Notes under the pieces: generated by a model
What the model saw: the letters and a program-made list of their open reading frames with translations, nothing else
What the model was told of the DNA's origin: nothing
The model's database searches: none
Program-made: the position numbers and the translations under genes
Shown: positions 2,990-59,445 of the stretch, piece after piece
How the letters are laid out: each line of letters starts with the position of its first letter
Position numbering within the stretch: the stretch's first letter is position 1
IMG/VR virus record: IMGVR_UViG_3300050821_004765
Span: 10,239-74,238 of that record
DNA: 64,000 nt
Reading direction: 5' to 3' (one strand)
DNA from: a virus

Positions 2990-4119
2990 TGCTCCACCTT
3001 CTTGGTGCGATGGTCGGCATAAGGGTCGACCTTTTTGTACACCGTTTCGATGAAGTATTCCACATCCTCTGGCTCACTACCTTCATCAAGTGAGCAAAGG
3101 TTGTAGAAGTTACAGAAATTGCAATCCTTGGCGAAGGACTTTGTAACTGGAATGTCCCCCGCCGCGGTACGCTCCATGATGGCGGCCTCTTGGCTGATCC
3201 GCATGATGGTCTTGTTGCGTTCACGTGGGGTACGTGCAACGAACTCCCGGCGAAACAGTGGGGTTTCGCTGCGTTCGCCGTGTACTTTTAGTTTGCAGCG
3301 CTCAGCTTCGGCGGCCAGTTCGTCCTTCAATAGCTTTTTGAAACTGGCAGGGTCAACCTCAATGCCATCTTTGGCATAAGAATTGATTAGCGCATCTATG
3401 TAATGCTGCTTCAATGGCTCCTTGAAAATTTTGCCTTTGCGCAAGAAGTTGTACTCCATACCCTTGACATAATCATCCTTGTTGATTAGCCCTTGGTCTT
3501 GGAGCGCTTTCGTCGCAACTGCAATATAAGTCGAAGCTTGCGGATCAAGGTCAAGATGCAACGTCGATAGTTGATTGGCGGTTTTGTGGTCCACCATCTT
3601 GATGTGTCCGTCGTTAAGATCGCGATAGCAAAGATCAAATACACCAACGAGAGTGCATATAGGCCGATAACCTTTACGTCCATCTTTCAAAATTGGTGGG
3701 TAGCGGATATCTGGGATGGTAACTGCAAAGTTGCGCTCGGCGTCCAGGACGTCCCAGTGCGGGTCGCCGGCATATTCAATAACATATTCTTCAAGGAGAT
3801 TACGCCCAAGGGTGTAGAAGTCTTCCCAAGTTGCAATTTCTTCTTCATCAACTTGCTCCTTGACTCGCAGGACATTGATCACATCTTGTGCTAATCGCTC
3901 CCAAGTTTCCGCTGGGTGCGGTCCGCGTTTTACCCCAGGTTGGTAGTATTCCGCCATGCAGAGGTGCACAATAGTACCGAATTCTGCAGCTGTCTTCCGT
4001 TCGGCTATTGGCCGCAGGCAATCTACATAGCCCCAATACCAAGCCTGGGGGCAACGGTGATAGGTTGCGCGCTCACTACTTCGCAGTAATGGCAATTCCT
4101 TACCAACGACGCCTGCCAT
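2986..4119 (-). CDS. Cas4-like / PD-(D/E)XK exonuclease
   Basis: RCP..., FGTIVH, GVFDL...MVDHKT, Q...Y, and C-terminal CNFCNFYNLC Fe-S cysteines. Confidence 0.85.
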   Translation of the reverse strand: MAGVVGKELPLLRSSERATYHRCPQAWYWGYVDCLRPIAERKTAAEFGTIVHLCMAEYYQPGVKRGPHPAETWERLAQDVINVLRVKEQVDEEEIATWEDFYTLGRNLLEEYVIEYAGDPHWDVLDAERNFAVTIPDIRYPPILKDGRKGYRPICTLVGVFDLCYRDLNDGHIKMVDHKTANQLSTLHLDLDPQASTYIAVATKALQDQGLINKDDYVKGMEYNFLRKGKIFKEPLKQHYIDALINSYAKDGIEVDPASFKKLLKDELAAEAERCKLKVHGERSETPLFRREFVARTPRERNKTIMRISQEAAIMERTAAGDIPVTKSFAKDCNFCNFYNLCSLDEGSEPEDVEYFIETVYKKVDPYADHRTKKVEH

Positions 4120-4853
4120 CAGAGTGCCTGCACAGCTAGCTGCTCGCCATCAACTACATAACCAAGACACTTAAATTCTAATCCGCTGCCATTTATTTCA
4201 TGAAATGCTGCAAATTCACCTAGTTTAGGGTGGTCCCAACCTGGATAGTTCCAGAATTCATCAAATACAATGATTGTACCACTTTTAATCCATGGCCTTA
4301 GCGTATCTAATACAAATTTAGTGCTACTGTAGAGATCGCAATCTATATGGATAAGTGCAATACCTTCACCATCAAGATAGGGCTGTTGAATATCAATCCA
4401 AGCCGGCAATGAATCTTCGAAAAGCCCCGATACAATTGCTACACTATCCCATTTTACTATTTCTTCTAGTCTGTATGTATCTATTGCAAATGACCCCTTG
4501 GGGTATTCACCTCGCCAAGCTTCTGGCAATCCTAGGAAACTATCAAATCCATAAGTAAACCTATGTTGCCGCAGCCAATTCAATGAGGTGCCATCGCCAA
4601 CGCCAAACTCTAGGCAATAGCCGTCAGGATTATCTCTCTGCAATACTGCACAATGGTTGAGCATCGGGGCACGACCAAGATATTCGTGCGCGTAGAATGG
4701 GCCATTTTTATCTGGTGAAGTGCTAATAATATATTCAGCGGTATCAACACATGCTTGTCGATACATTTCTCGCTTGATATTACTTACGCTTGTGCGCTCA
4801 CGAATGAATGTCCTGAAGTGATCACTGTCAATAGTGACTTCATCGAGACCCAC
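4119..4853 (-). CDS. TylF/MycF-family SAM-dependent O-methyltransferase
   Basis: LEFGVGDG, YGFDSFLGLPE, GLFEDSLP, IHIDCDLYSST, IVFDEF motifs; AT-richer than its neighbours. Confidence 0.85.
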   Translation of the reverse strand: MGLDEVTIDSDHFRTFIRERTSVSNIKREMYRQACVDTAEYIISTSPDKNGPFYAHEYLGRAPMLNHCAVLQRDNPDGYCLEFGVGDGTSLNWLRQHRFTYGFDSFLGLPEAWRGEYPKGSFAIDTYRLEEIVKWDSVAIVSGLFEDSLPAWIDIQQPYLDGEGIALIHIDCDLYSSTKFVLDTLRPWIKSGTIIVFDEFWNYPGWDHPKLGEFAAFHEINGSGLEFKCLGYVVDGEQLAVQAL

Positions 4854-5058
4854 TATATTACTCCCGCCACAGGTTGTTGTATTTACTTAAGTTATTCTGG
4901 AGAATGGCGAACGTCGCTGTAGTACTGACTTGGGATATAAGTCAATCCTTATTCGCCATTCACCAGAACGTACAGAGCCAGCCCGCATATGGCAGTCCTG
5001 TACTTCTGGCCCACACTCGGTCTGGAGTGCCTCCATTTCGGCAGTGGGCGCCGGTCTA

Positions 5059-5787
5059 TCAGAAGCTAGACTTGCTAGCCCCAACCTTGTTGAGTCGACC
5101 TTCACGGCCCTTGAAACGTCCGCGCGTGGACTCAGCCGGTGCCTCTTCGGTATCGCCTTCTACAGCGCCTTCGCCTTCAGCCTTGGCTGTTGCCTTAGCT
5201 TCACGGGCAGCTTCACGCTGCTCGCGGGCTGCTTCGCGCTGGTCGCGCTTCTGCTGGGCGGTCTCTTCCGCTTCCTGGCGCTTCTTGTCACGCTCTTCCA
5301 GCTTGCGCTGCCGGTCAGCTTCCTTAGCCAGCCGGTCAGCTTCACGCTGCTCACGCTTGGCGCTCTGGTTGAATTCGCGCTCGGCACGAAGCCATTCCCG
5401 CACGCCCTTCTCAGATTCGCGCTGCTCAGCCTTCTGCTGACGCTCGGCATCACGCTGAGCCTTGGCTGCAGCCTTCGCCTCGTTGACCTCTCGGTTGGCC
5501 TCTTCGCGTTCTGCAGTACGTGCCTTACGCTCGCGGTCAGCTTCAGTCAGCCCCTCTTCGTCACGCGCGCTGTTACGCCATGCCTGCCACTCGCTGTGGT
5601 TGGTCAGAACTGCCTGCACATGCCCTGCATCAATGGTTACGCCTGCCTTTTCGCCAGCGTATCGCGCGAGAGAAACGGCTGCAGGGCCAGGGTTCTCAAC
5701 GGAATAACGCTTGCGGTCGGTCTCATTGGCCATGATTGGTAAATCCTCTTTGCTAGTAGTTTGGGTCTTCCGCGATCTACGCGACAT
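5059..5787 (-). CDS. hypothetical protein with long charged coiled coil (real start may be the MANE codon near 5733)
   Basis: E/R/A/K-rich helix; N-domain resembles that of 22737..23081; follows a promoter. Confidence 0.75.
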   Translation of the reverse strand: MSRRSRKTQTTSKEDLPIMANETDRKRYSVENPGPAAVSLARYAGEKAGVTIDAGHVQAVLTNHSEWQAWRNSARDEEGLTEADRERKARTAEREEANREVNEAKAAAKAQRDAERQQKAEQRESEKGVREWLRAEREFNQSAKREQREADRLAKEADRQRKLEERDKKRQEAEETAQQKRDQREAAREQREAAREAKATAKAEGEGAVEGDTEEAPAESTRGRFKGREGRLNKVGASKSSF

Positions 5788-5797
5788 CTACCCTTCA

Positions 5798-5827
5798 AGT
5801 ATACCTTAGTCTAGTCCGGCGCGTAAA
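5798..5827 (-). promoter_or_regulatory. SigA-like promoter TTTACG-N18-TATACT
   Basis: Reverse complement of agtata-ccttagtctagtccggcg-cgtaaa; intergenic. Confidence 0.7.
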
Positions 5828-5844
5828 GGCCTATTTTCGGCCCG

Positions 5845-6192
5845 TTATCCGTCCGCCTCGACCGCTGGGCGTAGCGGTCGGCGAACTACTCGCCGTCGAA
5901 CCCGCATTTTTGACACACGCGCCTCTTTGCCGCTGTCGGGTCGCGGCATAGTGCGACGCTTTGCATCATGCAACATTTTGCGAGTTAAGTTGTAGCGTTC
6001 GTCTGCCTCCTCAGCATTGACTACTCTATGCATATAACGCTGGATATCTGGCCGCGTGATTTTATCCAACATTGCTTGCCGTCTACCCATATGTGCAGCA
6101 AACCATATGCTGGCGGGGTAGAAAATGGCCATGCCGCCACCGGCAAGAATCTCAGTTGTCGTGAGTACCATTTGCCCGCATATCAGCAGCAA
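5845..6192 (-). CDS. hypothetical protein, N-terminal hydrophobic segment
   Basis: ORF in the packed leftward operon. Confidence 0.55.
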   Translation of the reverse strand: MLLICGQMVLTTTEILAGGGMAIFYPASIWFAAHMGRRQAMLDKITRPDIQRYMHRVVNAEEADERYNLTRKMLHDAKRRTMPRPDSGKEARVSKMRVRRRVVRRPLRPAVEADG

Positions 6193-6418
6193 GATGCATG
6201 ATGTGTTTCAGCTCTTTCTCTGAATAACGCTCTACATCGTGAGTAAGTTTCAAATTGGGCACTTCAATGCCTTCATGAATAGCATGCCCCTGCTCGTGGC
6301 GTTCCACCTTGTATTTGCGAATACGTCCTGGTGGGCACATGTGGTGCTCCCAGTTCTTCGCTGGGGAGACTTCAATGACCCGCGTTGGGATGATCTTTGG
6401 CATATTTATGAATGGCAT
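6152..6418 (-). CDS. hypothetical protein
   Basis: Start overlaps the upstream stop. Confidence 0.6.
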   Translation of the reverse strand: MPFINMPKIIPTRVIEVSPAKNWEHHMCPPGRIRKYKVERHEQGHAIHEGIEVPNLKLTHDVERYSEKELKHIMHLAADMRANGTHDN

Positions 6419-6657
6419 CAGACCTCAAATTCATTGTAGTATTTCAATGTATTGGATCGTGCTTGCTGCAATTCAATTAAAGTAGCTTGCACATCTATGA
6501 TAACCAATTCAATATCAGTTAGCACTGCAGTTTGTGCCAAGGTTTCTGCAAACTTAGCTTGCAAATATGGTTTGCAATTTTCAAAGTGTGCCGCTTGTTG
6601 TGGTGTATTAGCCCATATTGTTACTTTGGTAGGTTTGGATTCATTTATGAGTGGCAT
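6418..6657 (-). CDS. hypothetical protein
   Basis: Coupled to neighbours; AAGGTGA SD. Confidence 0.6.
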   Translation of the reverse strand: MPLINESKPTKVTIWANTPQQAAHFENCKPYLQAKFAETLAQTAVLTDIELVIIDVQATLIELQQARSNTLKYYNEFEV

Positions 6658-6935
6658 ATCACCTTACCCCCATGGTAGTGCACAATATTCATCGCGTCCG
6701 CGATATCCTGTGCACCCTCCATGCTTTCACAGTTGATCCAGGCTACCACTGCACCATGGTCACCATATACCCAGAGCGTGTTGTTGAACTCTATGGTAAA
6801 GCTATGGGTTACCCCGCTGGCGATTGCATTTCCATCATTGTCAACTGCCCAATCAAGTTCTGGTCCCCAATCATCGGGCTCTTCCCAGCTTGCCGCTTCT
6901 TCACTTTGACCACTGTCTCCGTCGCTGCATGGCAT
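6645..6935 (-). CDS. hypothetical acidic protein
   Basis: GGGGAG SD upstream; competes with the overlapping ORF 6809..7012. Confidence 0.5.
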   Translation of the reverse strand: MPCSDGDSGQSEEAASWEEPDDWGPELDWAVDNDGNAIASGVTHSFTIEFNNTLWVYGDHGAVVAWINCESMEGAQDIADAMNIVHYHGGKVICHS

Positions 6936-7011
6936 CCGATGTAACTCCCCTTATCCTTGACCTTACCATTTGTATGTTTGCCATACTTAATGGGTTTTGC
7001 TTGCGATGGCA

Positions 7012-8943
7012 TTACACTCCTAACAGTTCCTTGGCAAAATTGGCACCTCGACTTCCGTCGATTATGTTCTTGATATTAAATTCTGCCTGCATATTGCTCT
7101 TAGCAATATTCTCTTCTATTGTACCCCTTGAACGCAGGTTCCAAATTGTGACCTGGTGATCGCGGCTGATTCGGTGCAGCCGGTCCTCGAGCTGCTCTTG
7201 GTCACTTGGGTCATAGGTCTCGTCACAGATGATCAAGTCGTCGGCCGCATCGAGCGTCAAACTTACACCACCAGCCTTAGTAGATAGCAGGAGAATGCGG
7301 AATTCGCTGGCGGGGTTGTCTTGCCAGTCGTCTTTGATCTGTTCGCGCATTTTGTCGGTTGTCGCTCCAGTAAACACATGTGCTCGAATGCCTAAGGCCG
7401 TCAGCCCACTGGCAATAGCGTTGATTAAGCCCGCAAACTGACTTGCAATCACTACTTTCGGTGTGTCCTGGTCGATCTTCATGCCTTTTTCGATGCCGCG
7501 TTCTTCGAGCCATTCCACGATCCAATCGAATTTGTTACTGGGCAACTTAGCTTTAAAGTTGCCAGTACCTTCATCCATAATGCCACAGCTGCCAGCGAAT
7601 TGCTTAAGCCGCGTCATTTCGGCTAGCAATCCGTTAGCCATCAACAAACCGCCCTCGATTTCGGCAGTTGCTGACTTAACCATATCGTCGTACGCTTGCT
7701 TCTGCTGAGGCAACATATCTAGCCAAACAGCGACTGGGCTACCGGGTACGCTCGGGTCGAGCGGTTCACCGGCATAGAACTTCGGCGGCAAATCTTGGGC
7801 AACTTCTGCCTTAGTGCGCCTAATCATGACGTTCTTGGCTTCAGCATAAAGGTTTTCCGCACTCTTCATGCCGCCAATCTGCATACCAAACCCGTTATTT
7901 GTCACCCAAAAGTGTTGCTCCACCCATTTCCAATATGCGCGGTAGAGGTCAGGCCGCAACCAATTGAGTGTTCCCCAAAGATAAACCTCTTTGCCACGAA
8001 ATGGCGTGCCGGAGAGTGCCATGCGCAACCCATTTGTCCGTACTTCGAGGGCTCCAATCCCAAGTCGCTGAGCAGATTGTTTCTTTTTATTACCAGAGGG
8101 GACAGGGAGAATTTGATGGGATTCATCGACAATGATAGCACTCCATAATACATTTTGGAATTCCAGCAAACTTTCACCCACAGGTTTAATGATCTTCTTG
8201 CCACTGTGATCCTTTACATAGTTGCCATAGTCATCAAGCTCTGCTTTAATTCGCACGTAGTTAGGGCTGGTAACTACCCACAGTCGTTTCGCCACATTCT
8301 CTTGGTTGTCAACAATGAACTGCATTACCTTGGCACGTTCACTCGCCGGCATATGTGCCCCAATCTGCACAATGCTCTCGTCATTGCCCAGCCAACGCCG
8401 TATTTCTTTTGGCCAAGTTAATTTTGCTGCTTGCTTGGGGGCGACGATGAGAATCGGTCCTGTTGTTCCTGCCTCAACAATTGCCCCAATTGCCTGCAGT
8501 GTTTTGCCAAGTCCCGGCTGATCTGCGATAAGGCAGGCTCTGTTCCTTGCTGCGAACGCCACTCCAACAGATTGAAAAGGTCGGCTAGAAAGCGCTCGCC
8601 AGATTCCAGGAGCTTGTTCTCTAACTGGCAAGAGATCAACAAGTTCGACAGCCCCAACATCTGGTATTGATTCTTGGTGAGCGCGTTCTCTAGTTGCCCA
8701 GTCGTGCAGTTCATTGCTGATTCGGATTGTGGCTCCATGGCGATCTGCTACCTTTCGTAGATTTGTGCAAGCATCCCAGTTCAACGGGAATATCCAACGC
8801 TTACTCGGCCCGTGCCAGCGATACGGGCCTGGCATGATTTTCTTTAGCCCGGAATTAACAACCGTATCAAATTGATCTAGCTGTACCCAAAGCGTAGAGT
8901 TGTTATCTGCTGTCCCCGCCAGCCATGTACGTTTCTTGCTCAT
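7012..8943 (-). CDS. SNF2-family DNA helicase
   Basis: LIADQPGLGKT, IVDESH, ALSGTP, AGGVSLTL, QLEDRLHRI motifs. Confidence 0.92.
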   Translation of the reverse strand: MSKKRTWLAGTADNNSTLWVQLDQFDTVVNSGLKKIMPGPYRWHGPSKRWIFPLNWDACTNLRKVADRHGATIRISNELHDWATRERAHQESIPDVGAVELVDLLPVREQAPGIWRALSSRPFQSVGVAFAARNRACLIADQPGLGKTLQAIGAIVEAGTTGPILIVAPKQAAKLTWPKEIRRWLGNDESIVQIGAHMPASERAKVMQFIVDNQENVAKRLWVVTSPNYVRIKAELDDYGNYVKDHSGKKIIKPVGESLLEFQNVLWSAIIVDESHQILPVPSGNKKKQSAQRLGIGALEVRTNGLRMALSGTPFRGKEVYLWGTLNWLRPDLYRAYWKWVEQHFWVTNNGFGMQIGGMKSAENLYAEAKNVMIRRTKAEVAQDLPPKFYAGEPLDPSVPGSPVAVWLDMLPQQKQAYDDMVKSATAEIEGGLLMANGLLAEMTRLKQFAGSCGIMDEGTGNFKAKLPSNKFDWIVEWLEERGIEKGMKIDQDTPKVVIASQFAGLINAIASGLTALGIRAHVFTGATTDKMREQIKDDWQDNPASEFRILLLSTKAGGVSLTLDAADDLIICDETYDPSDQEQLEDRLHRISRDHQVTIWNLRSRGTIEENIAKSNMQAEFNIKNIIDGSRGANFAKELLGV

Positions 8944-8989
8944 GTTGGCGCACCATTCATGGTAGCGATATGAATATTATATTTAGCTG

Positions 8990-9640
8990 TCATGCGATAC
9001 TCACAATTGCATCTAGATATACGGCCCGAAAGCCAGTTTCTTTGTTGTCTACAAAATTGACGATATCGCGACCATTGCGCGTAATTCCATTTACTTTAGC
9101 TACATATGCAGACTCTAGCAGACCGCTCTGTGAGTTCAGCCAGCTAATCGTCGTACCCCGTAGCGCGCGGACGACCGCCGAATCATCGCCCGCGAGTACC
9201 GGCGCAATCGCGCTACGGGCGATGCGGAGCGCTTCGCCGGTCGGGGCTACCGCGCTCGCTAAATCGTCGCTTACAAGCGCGCCTACGGTCGTGTTCCGCC
9301 GATTAATCCGTCTGGTCTGCTTCTGTACTTGCTTAGCAAGCCGCTCAGTATCAGGAGCCCGCAACGCGATCGACACGCACGCCGACACATTTTGCAGCTT
9401 CTGCTCGTGCCCAGCCAATACGTACCGCGGGGGATTCGCTGCAGTAATTGCGCCATTACCAGGCTGCCACCAAATCTCGATGACCTCGTCTTCACCCCGC
9501 CGAGCGAATACGTGCACCATACCAATCTCATCTTCTTTGACCTTGGCTTCCCAGCCATTGTCTTGAATTGTCTGGATAAACTTCGCAGCTTTTTCTAGTC
9601 CGCTTCGCCCTGCGGAAATGTAACTTGACTTGGTGCGCAT
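8990..9640 (-). CDS. hypothetical protein
   Basis: 216 aa; AGAAGGG SD; first gene after the promoter at 9690-9718. Confidence 0.75.
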   Translation of the reverse strand: MRTKSSYISAGRSGLEKAAKFIQTIQDNGWEAKVKEDEIGMVHVFARRGEDEVIEIWWQPGNGAITAANPPRYVLAGHEQKLQNVSACVSIALRAPDTERLAKQVQKQTRRINRRNTTVGALVSDDLASAVAPTGEALRIARSAIAPVLAGDDSAVVRALRGTTISWLNSQSGLLESAYVAKVNGITRNGRDIVNFVDNKETGFRAVYLDAIVSIA

Positions 9641-9689: not shown

Positions 9690-9718
9690 ATTATACCGGA
9701 CCAGACCGCGCTAGTCTA
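9690..9718 (-). promoter_or_regulatory. SigA-like promoter TAGACT-N17-TATAAT
   Basis: Reverse complement of attata-ccggaccagaccgcgct-agtcta. Confidence 0.8.
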
Positions 9719-10105: not shown

Positions 10106-10314
10106 GCTTCCTGCCAAGTGAATTTCCTAAGTGTGGGTTGCGCTAGGAATGGCATGTTTTTTAACTTGATGAAAACATCAATTGTTTCAGCTGCATCATA
10201 AGATGTAAATGTGAAAGTTTCACCACCAATAATTGCCTTGGATGGAAAATTCCACAAACTGATCGTGCCAAGACTAGTTGCACTAACAGTAATTTCATAC
10301 TTTACTTCATTCAT
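10102..10314 (-). CDS. hypothetical protein
   Basis: 4-nt overlaps at both ends. Confidence 0.6.
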   Translation of the reverse strand: MNEVKYEITVSATSLGTISLWNFPSKAIIGGETFTFTSYDAAETIDVFIKLKNMPFLAQPTLRKFTWQEA

Positions 10315-13491: not shown

Positions 13492-13520
13492 ATTATACCT
13501 TGGCAGTCCGGTCTAGTCTA
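13492..13520 (-). promoter_or_regulatory. SigA-like promoter TAGACT-N17-TATAAT
   Basis: Reverse complement of attata-ccttggcagtccggtct-agtcta. Confidence 0.8.
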
Positions 13521-17375: not shown

Positions 17376-18305
17376 CTAGTGGCGATGGCGTCCATTGGTG
17401 TGCCCCACAGTCTTTGCTTTTTGGGTGAGTTGTTTAGTTGCTATCTTGCTGGTTGTTTTGTTAGCGGCCAGCGGTACTGCTGTTGTGATAGGGGCCACCT
17501 TCTTGCTGTAGGCGCTATCAATGACCGGCTTAAGCAGCTTGTTGAGACCGTTAGTAATCTGTGCCGGCAGGAACTTTTGCAATGCGCTAACCAACGGCAA
17601 TGTTGGGGTGGGCACCATGTAGGTTGTGGTAACCCCGCCAAGTTTGTTGGTACTGGTTGTGATATCTGCCTTTGGAATTTGGCTGATGTCTTGTGTGATG
17701 ACGGTCGTGTGCACAGTAGCCGCACCAATAAGCGCGTTGGCAACCGCAAGTAGATAGCCAGGGCTCAGCGGGTTATTTGGGAAGTCTGCTAAGCCGTCAT
17801 ACTGCTTGACATAGAGGCTAAGGTTGTAGGGGGTCACCGGTGTAGCGAGCGGTGTGTAGTTGAGCACTGGGATAAACTTACCAATGAATGGCGTGAGCAT
17901 ACCAGTACCGCGCTCTTCATCTTCGATTTCGACAAACTGAACTTGGCTTTTGGGAATGCCAGCCTTCATGTCATTGACCATAATCTGGTCTGTAACCAAT
18001 GTGCCCTCGCTGATGCTGAGAATAGTTAGGGTTTTGTATGTAGCGTTCGGGTTCCCGACGTTAGCGCTAAGCCACGCCGATTGTAGCGCTGTCACGTCGG
18101 CTACGCCGGTCTGTACGCTCGGCCCTAGGGTAGTCGTCCCCTCGAACGGCGCCAAGCTCGCGTCGTACGCCGCACGCTCGGTAATACCGGGTTGGTAGGC
18201 GTAATTGAAGAAGTCACCAGTTGCTACGCCGTAAGTAGTTGGCTGCGCACTAGCGCCCAGCACGAGAATTGTACTGACCAGTGTTTGGGTAATTGGATCT
18301 GCCAT
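17376..18305 (-). CDS. PE-PPE domain (alpha/beta hydrolase-like) protein
   Basis: SISEG at the nucleophile elbow, QYDGLADFPNNP, ANALIGAATVH, TTYMVPTPTLPL, and LKPVIDSAY motifs typical of mycobacterial PE-PPE domains. Confidence 0.85.
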   Translation of the reverse strand: MADPITQTLVSTILVLGASAQPTTYGVATGDFFNYAYQPGITERAAYDASLAPFEGTTTLGPSVQTGVADVTALQSAWLSANVGNPNATYKTLTILSISEGTLVTDQIMVNDMKAGIPKSQVQFVEIEDEERGTGMLTPFIGKFIPVLNYTPLATPVTPYNLSLYVKQYDGLADFPNNPLSPGYLLAVANALIGAATVHTTVITQDISQIPKADITTSTNKLGGVTTTYMVPTPTLPLVSALQKFLPAQITNGLNKLLKPVIDSAYSKKVAPITTAVPLAANKTTSKIATKQLTQKAKTVGHTNGRHRH

Positions 18306-19977: not shown

Positions 19978-20363
19978 TAGTAGCGCACCACCTTATTCAT
20001 ATCATCGTCTGCTTTGTCGATCACCTTTGCACTTTCTGGGCAAAGGTATGTGGTTGCGTAATACCCCGCCTCAGCGGCTTCGTGTGGGCTATTGTATTTG
20101 CTAAGCAGCAACGTTGCTACCATATTCGCGCCAGCGTCGGTAGGGTTGTTTTGCAGAATGGCGCAAACCTGCGTGCCGATAATGTAGTCTTTGCTGCTTT
20201 GCTCCGCGGTATATGGGTTAGTTGGCGGTTCTGCAGTAAGTGGTGTCTGGGTATCTGTGCTGGTTGGGTCTGGGTGTGCAGTGGCGGGGTACATAGCCGC
20301 TGCTACAGCCGTGGCTGCCAGCGCTAGCAAGGTTTTGGCTGCAGTTTTGGTGGGCATTACCAT
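19977..20363 (-). CDS. secreted DUF732-like protein
   Basis: Signal peptide (KTLLALAATAVAAA..ATA-HP), G.QVC..L and A..YLCPE motifs. Confidence 0.65.
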   Translation of the reverse strand: MVMPTKTAAKTLLALAATAVAAAMYPATAHPDPTSTDTQTPLTAEPPTNPYTAEQSSKDYIIGTQVCAILQNNPTDAGANMVATLLLSKYNSPHEAAEAGYYATTYLCPESAKVIDKADDDMNKVVRY

Positions 20364-21169
20364 TTTTGTGTGCCTCCATGGAGTATGTTTTTGAGTTGTT
20401 CGTTGGTAAGTGCATTCGCTTTGGAGCGAATGCGCGCCACTTCTTCGAGTGTACGAAATGCCGGTGCTTTATCCTTTCGGTTCTTGGCATTTGGCAATAC
20501 GTGCTTAACGGGCGCTTGTTTAGCATCTGGGTTGTCTGGGTTATTCAAGTTGATTTGGTCTTCTGGGCGCTTTGCTTCATATTCAGCAATAGCTTTTTCT
20601 ACTTCTGGTATGGGATTAAACGCTAGGTTTGCAGCTGGGTGTAGCTGCTGTTCTGATTTCTTTTGCTGCTCACGTGCGAGCTGTTTTGCGCGCAATCTGA
20701 GGATTCTTTTTGCTTCTGGGCTTACTATTTGGTCTAGCCCAACGCTAGCATCCATGAGTGCTGCATGCCCTAAGCGCGCGGTCGAGCGTGCGTATGCGAC
20801 TGCTTCTTTATGGCTGAGTCCAGTTGCCCGCATCTTGCGGTAGTACACAACGTGCTGTTTGAGTTTTGGATCTAACCCCGCCTGGAGTATGCGGTTGTAC
20901 TCGTGACCTCTGGGGCGCAGGTGCGGTGGAAGCTTGGTGGGGGTGGCCTCTGTGATTGGCTGGGAGACTTTTTTGTCGCGCATATTTTGCGCGCGTTTGG
21001 CTTGGGCTCGCTGTAATTGTCGCTTACGGTGCGCTGCGGATGATGCTTTTGAACGGCGGTAATGTGCCAAAGCGTCTTTGGAAAGTGGGTCTAACCCCAG
21101 CTCTCGCATACCTAAAAACTCGTCGCGCGTCTGGCCTGGCAGCCTTGGCGGTAGCTTTTCGTAGCCCAT
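20357..21169 (-). CDS. basic hypothetical protein with internal duplication
   Basis: 270 aa, K/R-rich; AGGGG SD; follows the promoter at 21237-21265. Confidence 0.7.
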   Translation of the reverse strand: MGYEKLPPRLPGQTRDEFLGMRELGLDPLSKDALAHYRRSKASSAAHRKRQLQRAQAKRAQNMRDKKVSQPITEATPTKLPPHLRPRGHEYNRILQAGLDPKLKQHVVYYRKMRATGLSHKEAVAYARSTARLGHAALMDASVGLDQIVSPEAKRILRLRAKQLAREQQKKSEQQLHPAANLAFNPIPEVEKAIAEYEAKRPEDQINLNNPDNPDAKQAPVKHVLPNAKNRKDKAPAFRTLEEVARIRSKANALTNEQLKNILHGGTQKW

Positions 21170-21236: not shown

Positions 21237-21265
21237 AGTATACCTTGGCATAACCGAAAAGTAAA
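21237..21265 (-). promoter_or_regulatory. SigA-like promoter TTTACT-N17-TATACT
   Basis: Reverse complement of agtata-ccttggcataaccgaaa-agtaaa. Confidence 0.75.
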
Positions 21266-21833: not shown

Positions 21834-21878
21834 GCAAAAAACCGGGTCGCCCCACAAGTCAGTGAAGCGCCCGGTTCA
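21834..21878 (-). terminator. intrinsic terminator of the leftward small-gene operon
   Basis: Minus strand AACCGGGCGCTTCAC-tgactt-GTGGGGCGACCCGGTT followed by TTTT. Confidence 0.8.
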
Positions 21879-21887
21879 GCAGGTGGC

Positions 21888-21953
21888 CTAGAAGTAGTAA
21901 GCAAACAGGAACGTCAACGCCCCACCCACCATTCCCATACCAATAGTAAACAT
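21888..21953 (-). CDS. 21-aa hydrophobic peptide (not in ORF track)
   Basis: MFTIGMGMVGGALTFLFAYYF; TGATG overlap with the upstream gene; TG depletion ends at its stop. Confidence 0.5.
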   Translation of the reverse strand: MFTIGMGMVGGALTFLFAYYF

Positions 21954-22237
21954 CAGCGGTCCATTCGCTTTCCTTCATTCAAGTTAAACTCCACTAGCGC
22001 TTCGGCCATACACCAAGCGCACACCAGAGAGTTATCATCATCGGGCGTCAGCAACACCGCGGGGGATTCTCCGGGAATACCACAACGCTCACAAACACCA
22101 GTTTCGGTAAACGGTACCGTACTAGCAATAAGTAGTTCTTCTACCATTCCGCGGTCTTCAGCCACGGTAGCATCGCGTAACGTCGTCACCAACGTTACCG
22201 CAAAATCTAGGTAGCTACTATCCCAAGGTTCAGTCAC
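21953..22237 (-). CDS. small zinc-binding protein (putative early)
   Basis: CERC...CAWC; GAGGG SD; contains no His or Gln. Confidence 0.7.
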   Translation of the reverse strand: MTEPWDSSYLDFAVTLVTTLRDATVAEDRGMVEELLIASTVPFTETGVCERCGIPGESPAVLLTPDDDNSLVCAWCMAEALVEFNLNEGKRMDR

Positions 22238-22318
22238 GATATTCCCTCATTTCAGTTTCGTAGGCAAATTTAAATGCAGGAATAAGGGCGACCAAGGTCG
22301 CCCCTATCACCAGATATA

Positions 22319-22423
22319 TCAACGCGCGGCCTTTCGAATAGCCCAAGCTTCAGCTTTCGCAAATAACGGCGGTAGTAGCGCTACCAGCAACAACACAGTC
22401 GCCGCGCTTACCCAGAACATCAT
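22319..22423 (-). CDS. 34-aa membrane peptide (putative early; not in ORF track)
   Basis: MMFWVSAATVLLLVALLPPLFAKAEAWAIRKAAR; starts 5 nt after the upstream stop. Confidence 0.55.
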   Translation of the reverse strand: MMFWVSAATVLLLVALLPPLFAKAEAWAIRKAAR

Positions 22424-22428
22424 TTCGG

Positions 22429-22632
22429 TTACGCCACTTTCGCAACTACAGCGAGCGCGTACTCGATTTCAGCAAGTAACGCCGGCATCGTTCGGTAGAT
22501 ACTCACACCACGGCGTACCGCCCGCAAATACGCATCACCTTTCGGGCCGCGTTTCACAGCAGGCACCTTATACTTATCCGCATACGTTTCCGCGCGGGTA
22601 AGCACAGCATTATACATCTCAAGACTCGTCAT
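22429..22632 (-). CDS. hypothetical protein (putative early)
   Basis: GAAAGGTCTCTGAAATG start context; contains no His or Gln. Confidence 0.7.
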   Translation of the reverse strand: MTSLEMYNAVLTRAETYADKYKVPAVKRGPKGDAYLRAVRRGVSIYRTMPALLAEIEYALAVVAKVA

Positions 22633-22685
22633 TTCAGAGACCTTTCCTAGGCACAGGAAAGACGTACCGATTAGTACGCCATACC

Positions 22686-22717
22686 CGAACCGGGGAAACT
22701 TATTCCACCCGGTTCGA
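22686..22717. other. intergenic stem-loop
   Basis: CGAACCGGG...CCCGGTTCG inverted repeat; a second one (GGGCGACC-aa-GGTCGCCC) lies near 22286-22303. Confidence 0.6.
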
Positions 22718-22736
22718 GTAAAGCGCGCTAAGCGGT

Positions 22737-23081
22737 TCAGACTTCGACCGGAATACCGAGCGACTCCAGCAGGGCAATCGCGTCGGCCTTCTTCTTCTCA
22801 GTCCGCTCCGCGTTCTTCTCGGTCCGCTTCGAGGCAGTAACGGCGTTAACCGCGGCCTTCAGTTCCGGCGAACCGTTCTTCCAGGACTGGAACTCGGAGT
22901 GGTACTTAACGACGGCGGCGATCTGATCGGCATCGAGTCCCAGTTCCGGGAAACGCTTCTGGAAGTAAAGCGTTTCCAGAGCGACCGTACCAGTCACCTT
23001 CGCTTCGCTCGCTTCGCCGACAACGCTTTCCAGCTCGGCGATCACATCGGCGTTAGCGGAAACGATTTCAATAGCAGACAT
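22737..23081 (-). CDS. hypothetical protein (putative early), paralog of 5059..5787
   Basis: GAGAGGTCTTTGAAATG start context; high-GC3 host-like codons; HSEFQSW motif. Confidence 0.8.
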   Translation of the reverse strand: MSAIEIVSANADVIAELESVVGEASEAKVTGTVALETLYFQKRFPELGLDADQIAAVVKYHSEFQSWKNGSPELKAAVNAVTASKRTEKNAERTEKKKADAIALLESLGIPVEV

Positions 23082-23137
23082 TTCAAAGACCTCTCAGTTC
23101 GTCCGTTCGCTCGGATCGGCGAATCGGTACGTCTACG

Positions 23138-23166
23138 ACGCTACTGGCCCGGCGAGAGAAAGTCTA
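23138..23166 (-). promoter_or_regulatory. promoter TAGACT-N17-TAGCGT
   Basis: Same -35 and spacing as the 9690 and 13492 promoters; TANNNT -10. Confidence 0.65.
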
Positions 23167-23453
23167 GTCCGGAGCGAGATCGTTACCTAATCGTTACCGA
23201 AGTCGATACAGGCCTCTCATTCGCCCGTACACGAACGCAAGCCCGTCTCCGGTCCCGTCTATCGCGACGCGCGGTATCGTCCGCGACACGAGCGTACAGC
23301 GGCCCGCACGAACGGGCCTACCGACCGCGCGACGGGTCGCCGGAGCGGGCGTTCGAACGTACGTACGAAAAGTAAGGTAACCCTAACCCCTAGGGAGGGC
23401 GGTGCAGCTGTTCCGTGCTCGCGAAATTTTTGCATGCACGTATAAAAACAACT

Positions 23454-23485
23454 TAGCCTAGCTAACTGTTGTAAGCGCGTATACT
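23454..23485 (+). promoter_or_regulatory. probable leaderless promoter (-10 TATACT, 6 nt before ATG 23492)
   Basis: gcgcgTATACTactcacATG; -35 unclear. Confidence 0.5.
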
Positions 23486-23491
23486 ACTCAC

Positions 23492-24073
23492 ATGACGCTC
23501 CCCTGGGATCACCAAGACGAGTACCCAAGTCCACTTGGGTCTGGCCCCACGGCTATCAACTATGGGTACCCATTCCAAGTGGTCGGCCCAACTACACCAG
23601 AGCGTGCAGCCGAAGCACGCGCCACAGGCATTCCCAATCCATCACCACCCGTCGAGTACCAACCGCCTCGGTCGCCAACCTACGACCCAACCTATGGCGG
23701 ACTCCCACCCGACAAAAATACCAATTTCAACCCCAAGATGCCCAGGGACCCATTCAACACTCTACACGCCAGAGAGTCAGAAACAGAGTTCTCTTGGGGT
23801 GAGGGCATGTACCCAGACCCCATCCTGGACTACAGTGGCAGAGGTTCACGCTCCAGATTCCCGGTCGCGGACCCAGATGTCAGAGACCAGCTCCGCAACC
23901 TTGCTGCGCTACGGCGTACTGACCTCAGCAGTCCCTTCGCAGTCGCAGACCCGTACGTTGCTGGTAACCCAGACCGCTATGGTGCGCAGCCGCCGTTGGT
24001 GCGTAAGCGCGGGCGTTACAAGCGTGGCCACATTGATATCCCCAAGCCCCCACGTATGCACAGAGAGTGGTGA
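23492..24073 (+). CDS. proline-rich hypothetical protein, first rightward gene
   Basis: 193-aa ORF after a promoter-like element. Confidence 0.6.
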   Translation: MTLPWDHQDEYPSPLGSGPTAINYGYPFQVVGPTTPERAAEARATGIPNPSPPVEYQPPRSPTYDPTYGGLPPDKNTNFNPKMPRDPFNTLHARESETEFSWGEGMYPDPILDYSGRGSRSRFPVADPDVRDQLRNLAALRRTDLSSPFAVADPYVAGNPDRYGAQPPLVRKRGRYKRGHIDIPKPPRMHREW

Positions 24074-24082
24074 CGCACGCAA

Positions 24083-25345
24083 ATGGCACCGCAAAACCAA
24101 CAGGTCACCCCGGCATTTGTCAGCACAGAGGCACGCGAAGCGCACACCAAAGCCGTTGTACAGGCGGGGTTGATGTCACGCAATGACCAGCTACGCTTAG
24201 GCTTTCTTAAACCGGAGGACCTGGACGACGAAGAGATTGCGCATGGCACTGCCCGTGAGCCAGATGAAGACCCTGACATCCCGCTCAGCAAGCACATTGC
24301 GCGCCGGCAACGGCGCACGGGCAAGAACCGCAAGCGCACTGCATTGGGCACGCACAGCTACTACATGGCGCCCGACCAAGCTATGCCGCTCGACGTGTTT
24401 ACTGCCATGCAACAGGAGCACCAGAGGAGACTGGACAACTACCTGCGCAGCAATATCAACGAGGCATTGACTACAATTGTTGAGGTTATGCAGGACCAGA
24501 CTGCAGAGCCGCGCGACCGCATGGATGCAGCGAAGTACATATTTGAGCGCGTGGCGGGGAAGACACCTGACAAGGTCGAGGTTAAAGTTGATAAGGCACC
24601 CTGGGAAGAGGTGCTTACTGGTATTGCTAACGTTAGCCGTAGCATATCCCAGAAACTCAACAACGCCACCAACCAAGACCCCAATGACCCAGACAATATC
24701 ATGGATGTGGAATCCATACCAGAAGAAGATTTACCACAGCCGCGCATGTATGGGTACATCCAGACTACTACAGACTTTGACCCCACAAACCCCTACCAGC
24801 CACAGCCACAAACAGAAGACAACCAAACTGCTAACTTTGATATTAACCAGCCGCAAGAGGCTGGAGCTATGCCGATTTACCAGCCGGCAGGACAAGAGCT
24901 AGCTGTCCCTGACCACGACGAACAAGCTACGGTGCCGAGTAGCCAGTTTGCGCCACCACACCCCAGGGCCAATAGCTTTGCTGCGCCAGACTTTAGCAAC
25001 CCGCGGAATACCTCCAGCACGATGCCAAACACCTACGACCACCCGTTATACCAGGCACAAGAGGTGTACGCTGCGCCGAGCGAACCCTTGAGTGGCTACC
25101 TGCGCGAGCAGCAGGCACGAGCTGAAGAACTAGCAGTAGAGCGGAAAGCACAGAAAGCCAAACAAAAGGACACACAGGATAACCGGAAAGCTGCAAGTAA
25201 AGCACGCTTGCAAGCTAAGCAACGCCGGATCGTGCGGCGCACCATGGGCATGGATGCCATGGATAACAGCGAAATCCAGATGACAGAAACGCCATTAGGT
25301 GATACAGACAGTGAAGAATACCAGATTAAGTTCAGCGCGGACTAG
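24083..25345 (+). CDS. possible terminase small subunit-like protein
   Basis: Helical core ALTTIVEVMQD..AEPRDRMDAAKYIFERVAGKTPDKVEV typical of small-terminase-like proteins; long disordered C-part; position upstream of TerL. Confidence 0.5.
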   Translation: MAPQNQQVTPAFVSTEAREAHTKAVVQAGLMSRNDQLRLGFLKPEDLDDEEIAHGTAREPDEDPDIPLSKHIARRQRRTGKNRKRTALGTHSYYMAPDQAMPLDVFTAMQQEHQRRLDNYLRSNINEALTTIVEVMQDQTAEPRDRMDAAKYIFERVAGKTPDKVEVKVDKAPWEEVLTGIANVSRSISQKLNNATNQDPNDPDNIMDVESIPEEDLPQPRMYGYIQTTTDFDPTNPYQPQPQTEDNQTANFDINQPQEAGAMPIYQPAGQELAVPDHDEQATVPSSQFAPPHPRANSFAAPDFSNPRNTSSTMPNTYDHPLYQAQEVYAAPSEPLSGYLREQQARAEELAVERKAQKAKQKDTQDNRKAASKARLQAKQRRIVRRTMGMDAMDNSEIQMTETPLGDTDSEEYQIKFSAD

Positions 25346-25371
25346 AACCCCCAAAAAGTATCAGGTATACT
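25343..25371 (+). promoter_or_regulatory. promoter TAGAAC-N17-TATACT
   Basis: Matches the phage promoter family (GGTATACT). Confidence 0.7.
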
Positions 25372-57904: not shown

Positions 57905-58567
57905 ATGACTTTGTGGGGCCCTGATACCAGCAACAATAACTTCAGCTATCCCAGCCAAGCCCAGCAACTTGTCGAGAGTTTGCCTGGCCAAGGTTACTCC
58001 TGGATTGAACATAAGGTCAGCCAGGGTAGCGATTTCCAAGATGCTTTTTGGCCTACGATCAAATCTACTGCGGCCAACATGCACTTTCCTTGCATCGGTT
58101 ACCACTACGTAGACCTCAGCAATCCTGCATCCCAAGCCCAGAACTTTGTGAATAACCAGGGCGGCGTCAATGCTATGCTGGATCAAGAAGATGAGTCTGG
58201 TGACATCGGTAACCTCTGGGCGGTGATTAATGCATTTAATAATCTTGGCGTTAATATACCGCTGGTCTATTTGCCAGAATGGTATTGGGGGCAGATCGGC
58301 TCCCCTGACCTCTCGGCATTTGCCAGCAACGGGATTGCGCTAATCAGCTCGGGCTACCCGATCAGCGGTGAGGACTATGCCTCTACGCTTTATACAGAGG
58401 GCAATGGCGATAACGGTGAAGGCTGGAATAGCTACGGCGGGGCAACCCCTAGCATTTGGCAATTCACCGATGACGCAAATCTAGATAATGGTTTTGTTGG
58501 TGACGTCAATGCATTTAAGGGTAACGGCTGTCAGCTACGTTCTGTATTAACTACTGGGAGCTACTAA
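57905..58567 (+). CDS. lysin A, GH25 muramidase
   Basis: GPDTSNNN, KVSQG, GYHY, MLDQE, IWQFTD, DVNAF motifs. Confidence 0.85.
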   Translation: MTLWGPDTSNNNFSYPSQAQQLVESLPGQGYSWIEHKVSQGSDFQDAFWPTIKSTAANMHFPCIGYHYVDLSNPASQAQNFVNNQGGVNAMLDQEDESGDIGNLWAVINAFNNLGVNIPLVYLPEWYWGQIGSPDLSAFASNGIALISSGYPISGEDYASTLYTEGNGDNGEGWNSYGGATPSIWQFTDDANLDNGFVGDVNAFKGNGCQLRSVLTTGSY

Positions 58568-59445
58568 TGCCGCAGCACATTGTACTGACTGTATCGGGTA
58601 CCGGTACAAATATGTTTGATACCACACCGCCCCAGCCTGCGTTAGTTGGGCAACAACTTGCGGAGAATGAACCAGACATCTTCTTTTGGCAACCTGTTGG
58701 TGATTACCCAGCCGCTACCATTCCCATGGACCCCTCGGTAGTTATGGGTGTGCAATCACTGATCTACCTTACCACCGGTGAGATCTACCCCGGCTTCAAC
58801 ATTACGCCAGGGCCGTTCTATCGTTACAATTCTTTGGTCCTTGATGGGTATTCACAGGGCGCAATGGTAGTGTGCCAGTTTATCCAGTGGTGCTGGAAAT
58901 ATAACCGCATGGATATCCTGTCACGGATCGTCGCTGTTGTTGTCGAGGGCAACCCACAACGTCTTGCGGGCTTTGCGTCTGGCAATGAGTTCGCTGGCTG
59001 GCCGATGCCACCCGACAAGAACGGCGGTCCTAGCGGCGGTATCGCACAAGCCGTTAACCCAAATGGCGCTTGTAACATGACGCTGGCACAGATGCAATGC
59101 CAATTGCCAAATGCCGCTGAAGTTACACACTTCTGGGGTGACTTTGCCAACACTAACAACCCAGACCAGGGTGCTACAGAACTATATGCAATCGCACCGC
59201 AAAATGGGGTCGGTTCAATTGAGCAGACAGTATTCAATGCAGTACAGAACTTGGATGGACCATCTATTCTCGGCGTTATGGGGGACTTGATGCACCCCAT
59301 TGAAGATATCCAAGCAATCGTTAATGGCTTCCAATTCCTGGCTGCCGGTGCAAATGCAGACCATTACTCATATGATATCACACCGATGTACAATTTTATT
59401 TCGTTGGCAGGACACCAAACCATGCCATTCCTCGTTGCGGCCTAG
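58567..59445 (+). CDS. lysin B (cutinase-like esterase)
   Basis: TVSGTG, WQPVGDYPA, GYSQGA, GNPQR motifs and a late His. Confidence 0.88.
   Translation: MPQHIVLTVSGTGTNMFDTTPPQPALVGQQLAENEPDIFFWQPVGDYPAATIPMDPSVVMGVQSLIYLTTGEIYPGFNITPGPFYRYNSLVLDGYSQGAMVVCQFIQWCWKYNRMDILSRIVAVVVEGNPQRLAGFASGNEFAGWPMPPDKNGGPSGGIAQAVNPNGACNMTLAQMQCQLPNAAEVTHFWGDFANTNNPDQGATELYAIAPQNGVGSIEQTVFNAVQNLDGPSILGVMGDLMHPIEDIQAIVNGFQFLAAGANADHYSYDITPMYNFISLAGHQTMPFLVAA

Follow-up and report, generated by a model that had tools for sequence, protein, structure and literature searches.

In hypermodified phages such as SH-Ab 15599 (with the base alpha-dapT), M6, ViI and phiW-14, bulky marks protect the DNA against restriction, and the dinucleotide concerned is TG, read separately on each strand; two reports place alpha-dapT preferentially at TG (PMC13458397) and describe the 5-hydroxymethyl-2'-deoxyuridine (5-hmdU) DNA kinase of M6 as acting at TG/TC (PMC6449724). 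The parts of these reports that were consulted contain no mention of islands kept free of the mark. In this work, we analyze a 1517-nucleotide (nt) zone that is nearly devoid of TG on its + strand, in a phage genome deposited as IMG/VR record IMGVR_UViG_3300050821_004765. The zone occupies positions 21886-23402 of the 64,000-nt stretch that was analyzed (the window; positions 10,239 to 74,238 of the record), and coordinates refer to this window unless marked as genome coordinates. An original prediction, made from the letters of the window, had proposed that the zone is a first-expressed operon that has purged TG from its template strand because the virion DNA carries a bulky mark in TG context, and had rightly pointed to TG-context thymidine hypermodification in other phages. 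Unlike in those phages, genes for 5-hmdU kinase and aGPT-pyrophosphorylase were not found here when about 55 open reading frames (ORFs) of the genome were scanned against Pfam and PHROGs.

A similar local near-absence of TG and CA, with CpG enriched, occurs in the Escherichia coli phage ECML-117 (JX128258; Wifcevirus), in which a block at about 6900-8065 has an observed/expected ratio (o/e) of 0.16-0.45 for TG and CA and of 1.9-2.4 for CG. The two phages share a dnaE-type polymerase (37% identity), ThyX and a helicase. They differ in host, the phylum here being Actinobacteria, and in the strength of the depletion, which is greater here (o/e 0.03-0.19). In the present case, a gene family and LexA boxes also mark the island, and the purge is almost purely one-stranded over 1.2 kilobases (kb). 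In ECML-117, a non-coding G/T-rich stretch (4500-4880) with 1 CA and about 60 TG in 400 nt lies 2 kb from the TG/CA-poor block.

The pre-early region of T5 and the early region of T7 (Ocr) lack restriction targets and are alike in that a small junction cassette avoids a target carried by the rest of the genome; the idea is that the region entering first would have to function ahead of any protection. What is avoided here, however, is a dinucleotide rather than a site of 4-8 base pairs (bp), it is avoided strand-specifically, and the promoter type is common to other operons. ACA-less messenger RNAs (mRNAs) that escape MazF-type interferases are alike in lacking the target of the nuclease, every ACA of the present transcript having gone with the loss of CA, whereas the present ban covers each of the four NCA words, each of the four CAN words and, among relatives, UG too. 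A limited literature search found no published description of such TG/CA-free islands.

The TG-depleted zone and its transcription unit

The zone is almost TG-free on the + strand, far beyond chance. It contains six TG (22275, 22888, 22900, 22924, 22960 and 23145), a count identical to that of the original prediction, against 74.2 expected from local base composition and about 116 at genome density, the latter in keeping with the earlier estimate of more than 100. Across the window, TG has an o/e of 1.18. CA on the same strand stays abundant (118, o/e 1.02), which bears out the claim of a strand-specific loss, and the dinucleotides found where TG is missing include CG (o/e 1.52), TC (1.30), TT (1.40) and TA (1.17). 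The number of TG per 300 nt averages 22.8 +/- 6.3 across the window and falls to 0 in the zone. The longest TG gaps of the window and of the entire 74,238-bp genome (613, 391, 258 and 185 nt) all lie inside the zone, the next longest outside it being 150 nt, and the borders are as sharp as predicted, the nearest TGs on either side being those at 21884 and 23403. TG-free patches scattered over the rest of the genome were judged not significant; the 150-nt gap compares with about 0.06 expected by chance, in a back-of-envelope estimate from TG density, and gaps in CA reach 120 nt.

The depletion also withstood a codon-shuffling null, in which amino-acid sequences were held fixed and synonymous codons were drawn from genome usage in 2000 shuffles. 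Across the six genes in the zone, codon positions 2-3 and 3-1 were expected to hold about 47 CA on the sense strand, and 1 was observed (P = 0/2000 for g114, g67 and g94; P = 0.0005 for g34). Chance or base composition as the cause is ruled out by the TG counts, the gap lengths and this shuffling. The loss of TG spans the three codon phases, a 104-nt spacer and a leader of about 320 nt, and thus acts on nucleotides rather than codons.

The zone is the last leftward transcription unit in its entirety, comprising promoter-like sites, a leader, six small genes and the final stop codon. Its features, together with the terminator, the first rightward gene and a paralog of g114, are as follows.

21886-23402, no strand assigned: TG-depleted zone, with 6 TG on the + strand (o/e 0.08); the sense strand of the leftward operon is nearly CA-free
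23379-23386, - strand: distal promoter-like element TTAGGGTT, with a -10-like TAGGGT; the same element opens the islands of loci L021 and L023
23353-23368, no strand assigned: LexA-box-like palindrome, 1 mismatch to TCGAAC-N4-GTTCGA, immediately downstream of the distal -10
23138-23166, - strand: proximal promoter-like site cggacTAGACT-N17-TAGCGT, one of a family of such sites spread over the genome
23082-23402, - strand: leader and upstream region; TG o/e 0.06, CA o/e 0.41, CG o/e 1.5-1.8
22737-23081, - strand: g114, 114 amino acids (aa), predicted all-helical, HSEFQ motif; founder of the island gene family; 4 CA on the sense strand
22661-22680, - strand: hairpin in the 104-nt spacer after g114, a terminator-like consensus match only
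22429-22632, - strand: g67, 67 aa, no His or Gln; no CA on the sense strand; a gene of similar size and position in L114
22319-22423, - strand: g34, small hydrophobic protein; no CA on the sense strand
22230-22346, - strand: g38, small hydrophobic protein, start uncertain; 1 CA, in the GCA codon at 22275/6
21953-22237, - strand: g94, 94 aa, CxxC...CxxC pattern; no CA on the sense strand
21886-21951, - strand: g21, hydrophobic mini-gene of 21 codons; overlaps the stop of g94 (TGATG), and its own stop closes the zone
21836-21880, - strand: intrinsic terminator (-29.4 kcal/mol, z -4.3) with a U run behind it
23492-24073, + strand: p193, first rightward gene; conserved anchor for island position in all relatives
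5059-5787, - strand: p242, paralog with an HSEWQ motif, in the same genome and on the same strand; CA o/e 1.0 and TG o/e 1.34 on the sense strand; internal control

Leftward genes occupy positions 1-21169 and rightward structural genes begin at 23492. Because the zone coincides exactly with the leftward unit, the cleared strand is the template of that unit. Five genes had been predicted, four of them without His or Gln; the mini-gene at 21886-21951 makes six, and five of the six proteins lack both residues, which on average make up 6.6% of the proteins of this genome. The original prediction correctly identified the four TGs of 22737-23081 as three Gln codons and one His codon, and the HSExQ motif as conserved in the paralog (HSEFQ in g114, HSEWQ in p242). 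It had listed the TG at 22275 without counting it as coding; this fifth coding TG corresponds to a GCA Ala codon of g38. The remaining TG, at 23145, falls between the two elements of the proximal promoter-like site, in the spacer immediately upstream of the -10.

The leader and upstream region is the sole part of the zone that is poor in TG on both strands, and no known RNA families were recognized in it or in the islands of relatives. Sense-strand CA returns 2 nt past the last stop and in the terminator stem, where one CA is paired to UG. The adjoining leftward gene (20357-21169) has the opposite bias, with 89 TG and 29 CA on the + strand; this is the usual CA-rich sense-strand style of the genome, which makes its reversal in the cassette more striking.

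The proximal promoter-like site belongs to a family of about eight near-identical sites, cggacTAGACT-N15-GGTATAAT (or TATACT; also written cggacTAGACT-N17-TAnnnT). Its members lie at 23138-23166, 21237-21265, 13492-13520, 9690-9718, 5798-5827 and 25343-25371 of the window and at 2486-2514 and 9274-9302 in genome coordinates, and they stand ahead of the majority of leftward operons and of a single rightward unit that comes after the small terminase gene. The copy in the cassette has a weaker -10, TAGCGT.

A conserved island under purifying selection

Relatives of the phage, which are uncultured phage loci (L numbers), were fetched via the terminase and via p193. In one clade, which comprises eight lineages including this phage, an island lies directly upstream of the p193 homolog. 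The zone is a strand-asymmetric variant of this conserved island, which is situated at the early/late gene junction and has at its core a small helical protein carrying an HSEWQ-type motif. In the L114, L023, L021, L015, L137 and L141 types, TG and CA both have an o/e of 0.11-0.19 and CG of 1.6-2.0, over 590-1000 bp that cover the leader, the gene and the 3' untranslated region; the partial L019-type island has zero TG and zero CA. A g114-like gene is present in every island (hmmsearch E 1e-68 to 1e-13). The islands of L015, L021 and L023 extend from the conserved TTAGGGTT to the terminator, and their residual TG and CA are confined to the start codon (GTG, then GCA or ACA) and to the Trp-Gln/His codons of the motif. 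Besides His and Gln, the purge has cost the island-encoded proteins of relatives Cys, Trp and Met. The island is missing from a second branch of relatives, whose p193 is the most similar and which includes complete genomes of 71-74 kb; this branch carries the long paralog only.

Strandedness varies within the clade. Most lineages have the cassette pointing rightward. It points leftward in this phage and in the closest analogue of this phage, L114, whose leftward operon contains a g114-like gene and two others, one of 68 aa and one small and hydrophobic. Genes 1-2 of L114 are cleared on both strands and gene 3 on the template strand only (1 TG versus 19 CA), so that both phages show a gradient from promoter-proximal depletion on both strands to distal depletion of the template alone. 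In L133 and L135, the template strand of the gene is not depleted (TG o/e 0.88) and the coding strand is TG-poor. The sense strand is CA-free in the downstream gene of L114 and in the leader of L116. All significant one-sided cases (this phage, gene C of L114, the L023 flank and the L135 gene) are TG-poor on the TerL-sense strand. A rule by which the same DNA strand is cleared whatever the gene direction was not adopted, since rightward genes here normally carry more CA than TG and L135 and L116 may simply be relaxed islands.

Purifying selection keeps the zone free of TG on the + strand, and thus its mRNA free of CA. Two L021-type variants, with 33 substitutions each, had each gained 1 TG/CA against about 7-8 expected from the same substitution spectrum at random sites (P 0.005 and 0.011). 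The paralog p242 is normally composed, which rules out a requirement of the protein family as the cause; together with the avoidance of new TG and CA in recent variants, it argues for selection rather than protein needs. Across the family, 44 representatives were found among 1.8 billion proteins, and most contain only 0-5% Cys+Trp+Met+His+Gln. The family proteins have diverged to 12-26% identity with g114 and the purge is retained; the family alignment (A3) proved too divergent for locus searches. For g114 itself, there was no Pfam match, one weak PHROG match and no sequence match in the Protein Data Bank. Its helical model (predicted local distance difference test score 75) matched no fold (best Foldseek E 0.87-1.3), a word-based search returned no close homolog, and neither close relatives in the phage database nor homologs or prophage copies in genome collections were found.

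The islands are also marked by LexA boxes, for which the consensus defined for Mycobacterium tuberculosis LexA is TCGAAC-N4-GTTCGA (PMC3381160). No fetched locus without an island has a perfect box; most of the islands are flanked by such boxes, 1-3 per island at the borders, and some island-bearing loci have none. The L021 island has one box lying over the -35 of the TTAGGGTT promoter and a second beyond the terminator, and in L015 two tandem perfect boxes precede additional box-like repeats. The window contains four LexA-like sites with at most two mismatches, against 1.4 expected. As a pattern of sequence matches, this arrangement would point to control of the cassette by the host SOS repressor rather than simple 'immediate-early' expression. 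The description of the operon as first-expressed is not supported, given that the box at 23353-23368 suggests SOS control and that the promoter family of the proximal site also drives operons with TG-rich templates. Known LexA-controlled phage genes (SOS-box-regulated antirepressors) resemble the relatives with perfect boxes at their island borders, but in the present case no integrase or repressor was recognized in the scanned ORFs and no prophage copies were found in genome collections. LexA control as such says nothing on dinucleotide avoidance. In L023 (4640-4800), and also in L117-L119, about eight tandem palindromes AGTTCGG-N4-CCGAACT lie immediately left of the island promoter, in a 300-nt stretch with 0 TG and 39 CA on the + strand; they could form an operator, a centromere-like array or a hairpin array.

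Candidate readers of TG and CA

Duplex TG/CA steps are abundant in the zone (118) and all in one orientation, which rules out strand-blind recognition of the duplex step there. The reader must therefore be strand-specific, whether it acts on RNA or single-stranded DNA or is a nickase or a template-reading polymerase. Our tentative preference, at a probability clearly short of even, is for a selective agent that reads the dinucleotide on DNA and not on RNA. Either the phage would put a TG-context base mark on its own DNA and the cassette would have to stay mark-free, or a host enzyme would attack or mark TG on unprotected DNA; clearance would leave the cassette immune, or still open to reading and binding by RNA polymerase and LexA. 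Beyond the first 300 nt, this phage would need to clear only the strand that RNA polymerase reads; near the promoter, and in most relatives, neither strand is left with much TG. A single rule, to avoid TG on DNA strands and on the template first, covers the two-strand purge of relatives, the gradient here and in L114 and the exemption of the terminator, whereas at the RNA level the both-strand purge would take a pair of distinct bans, one against CA and one against UG. We count in favor of a DNA-level reader the size and sharp edges of the depletion, non-coding parts included, the both-strand purge in relatives, the promoter-proximal gradient, the p242 control and the ongoing selection. To these are added the TG-specific thymidine hypermodification of other phages, the block in the unrelated ECML-117 and a weak trend in restriction-type palindromes: 6-bp palindromes without TG/CA have a genome-wide o/e of 0.855 and those with TG/CA of 0.987 (P 0.06).

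Several observations weigh against such a reader. The palindrome test for protection of TG gave a trend only and is contradicted by CATG, which is avoided genome-wide (o/e 0.82) and is, with GGCC (0.77), the most avoided of the 4-bp restriction-type palindromes. Like the 5-hmdU DNA kinase and aGPT-pyrophosphorylase, a deoxyuridine monophosphate hydroxymethylase was not found in the scanned ORFs, where several proteins without an assigned function remain, and a ThyX-type thymidylate synthase is present, which is not the expected need of a phage that replaces T. The candidate modification genes, a TylF-like methyltransferase and a 337-aa neighbor of dnaE, are also found in complete island-free relatives, and no correlation between island and candidate genes was seen among relatives. 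These results lend no support to the bulky virion mark that had been predicted. In addition, the single orientation of the 118 duplex steps means that a strand-specific step must be assumed, the edges of the island follow promoter and terminator, which an RNA-level cause fits equally well, and other leftward operons transcribed from the same promoter family have TG-rich template strands. The predicted purge of the template holds for this operon; it does not extend to relatives that clear both strands or to L133 and L135, so that template reading by RNA polymerase is no general rule.

The fit of the zone to a transcript is the strength of an explanation at the RNA level, in which single-stranded CA would be cut by a host ribonuclease (a toxin, an abortive-infection enzyme or one induced by SOS or stress) or by a phage shut-off ribonuclease and would have to be kept out of the message between transcription start and final stop. 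In this phage, as in L015, L021 and L023, the zone runs from the promoter to the last stop or terminator, and the ban holds in leader, spacers and every codon phase. One residual CA of the terminator lies in a stem, two residual sites of L021 (UGCCAG and CUGGCA) are able to pair together, and the CA-free sense strands of the L114 downstream gene and the L116 leader agree as well; the LexA boxes suggest expression under stress, when ribonuclease toxins are active. We nevertheless consider this explanation unlikely. It does not account for the ban on UG in the same RNA of most relatives, for the mRNA of L133/L135, which is UG-poor but has 22 CA (o/e 0.88), for the CA-rich composition of all other phage mRNAs or for an unpaired CA 2 nt past the last stop, and we know of no cognate nuclease for a ban on CA. 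Mycobacterial RNase E can be rejected as the agent, as its preference for RN|CNU, with cleavage 5' of any C (PMC10641625), is not particular to CA, and this mRNA has C in abundance. If a context-specific mutational process had acted in place of selection, such as T-to-C at TpG (A-to-G at CpA) on DNA that is often single-stranded in a heavily transcribed or SOS-induced cassette, it would have turned TG and CA into CG except at essential Trp, Gln and His codons. The islands do resemble their flanks with each TG and CA made CG (a GC content of 65-70% as against about 48%, and 20-25 CG per 100 nt as against about 5), and the sites left in place belong to the start codon and the conserved Trp-Gln/His codons. 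This process is nonetheless improbable: TG has been replaced by TC, TT and TA besides CG, in-frame NTG codons must change at position 3 and not at the T, the borders are sharp to a single nucleotide, the purge persists at 12-26% protein identity, and no enzyme with such a context preference is known to us.

There is similarly little likelihood, in our judgment, that the TG-free strand serves some other function, whether by silencing antisense or spurious translation through the lack of NTG starts and TGA, by excluding a primase or initiator that needs (C/G)TG, or by giving the early/late divergence a stiff CpG-rich segment with some structural, R-loop or origin role. Every canonical start codon includes TG, relatives' transcripts have NTG only at the true start and at Trp codons, and the island always adjoins the p193 promoter at the early/late junction, in either orientation. 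No obvious gain, however, is large enough to explain the removal of about 100 sites and five amino acids, start codons do not explain why CA is avoided on the same strand, and the primase motifs considered are those of other systems. The GC skew changes sign at about 21.7 kb and not at the promoter, and this change is mostly a by-product of TG removal. As for a recently acquired foreign cassette that still has the composition of its donor, the island is GC-richer than its flanks and missing from the closest p193/TerL relatives. Yet no fewer than eight lineages, their proteins highly diverged, have kept the purge, recent substitutions have respected it, it covers five further genes in this phage, and no homolog was found in the genome collection. 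High-GC actinobacterial genes also use CTG, GTG, CAG and CAC freely, and we regard a foreign origin as very improbable indeed.

The phage and the reach of the finding

The 74,238-bp genome is a circular assembly with an end overlap of about 95 nt; its IMG/VR relatives have no end repeats. Its genes include a GH25/cutinase lysis pair as well as one for an esterase that has a PE-PPE domain, and its large terminase is 59% identical to Mycobacterium phage terminases. Gene content and actinobacterial LexA boxes would place it among the phages of mycolic-acid Actinobacteria. The two esterase-type genes, one in the leftward arm (17376-18305, PE-PPE domain) and one adjoining the GH25 lysin (58567-59445, cutinase-like), suggest two LysB-like functions. 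The dnaE-type polymerase is split into a PHP-domain ORF and a polymerase core, with an HNH endonuclease gene between them (5371-9103 in genome coordinates), and a PrimPol/D5 primase-helicase is also present. The ThyX homolog (3629-4765 in genome coordinates; Pfam Thy1, 1.9e-30) is long, at 378 aa, and has RQR in place of the signature RHR. Near the island, a conserved palindrome TTAGC(T/C)TAGCTAA (23452-23466) lies upstream of p193, and TATACT occurs 6 nt ahead of its ATG (23480-23494), as TATACT or TATAAT does 6-7 nt ahead in L023, L114, L116 and L135; by this spacing, the p193 mRNA looks leaderless.

What is new here is the phenomenon in Actinobacteria, its association with a defined gene family and LexA boxes, the paralog control and the direct evidence of ongoing selection. 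The removal of a dinucleotide from 1.5 kb is among the strongest local sequence constraints in a phage genome known to us, and its cost falls on the proteins, in the amino acids His and Gln and, in relatives, Cys, Trp and Met. So strong a constraint must reflect a molecular reader of TG/CA, be it a base modification, a nuclease or nickase, or a ribonuclease, and as the same signature is found in unrelated phages, such a reader is probably widespread. The clade offers experimental handles in its one- and two-stranded variants, both gene orientations, a normal paralog and an apparent link to the host SOS repressor. It is a doubtful but consequential extension that unrelated actinobacterial and enterobacterial phages face or make a strand-read, TpG-specific DNA mark or attack, and keep key early/SOS cassettes free of TG at a cost of up to five amino acids. 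If true, this would amount to a general principle of a 'mark-free landing pad' and would imply an undiscovered TG-context modification or TG-reading immunity in these hosts.

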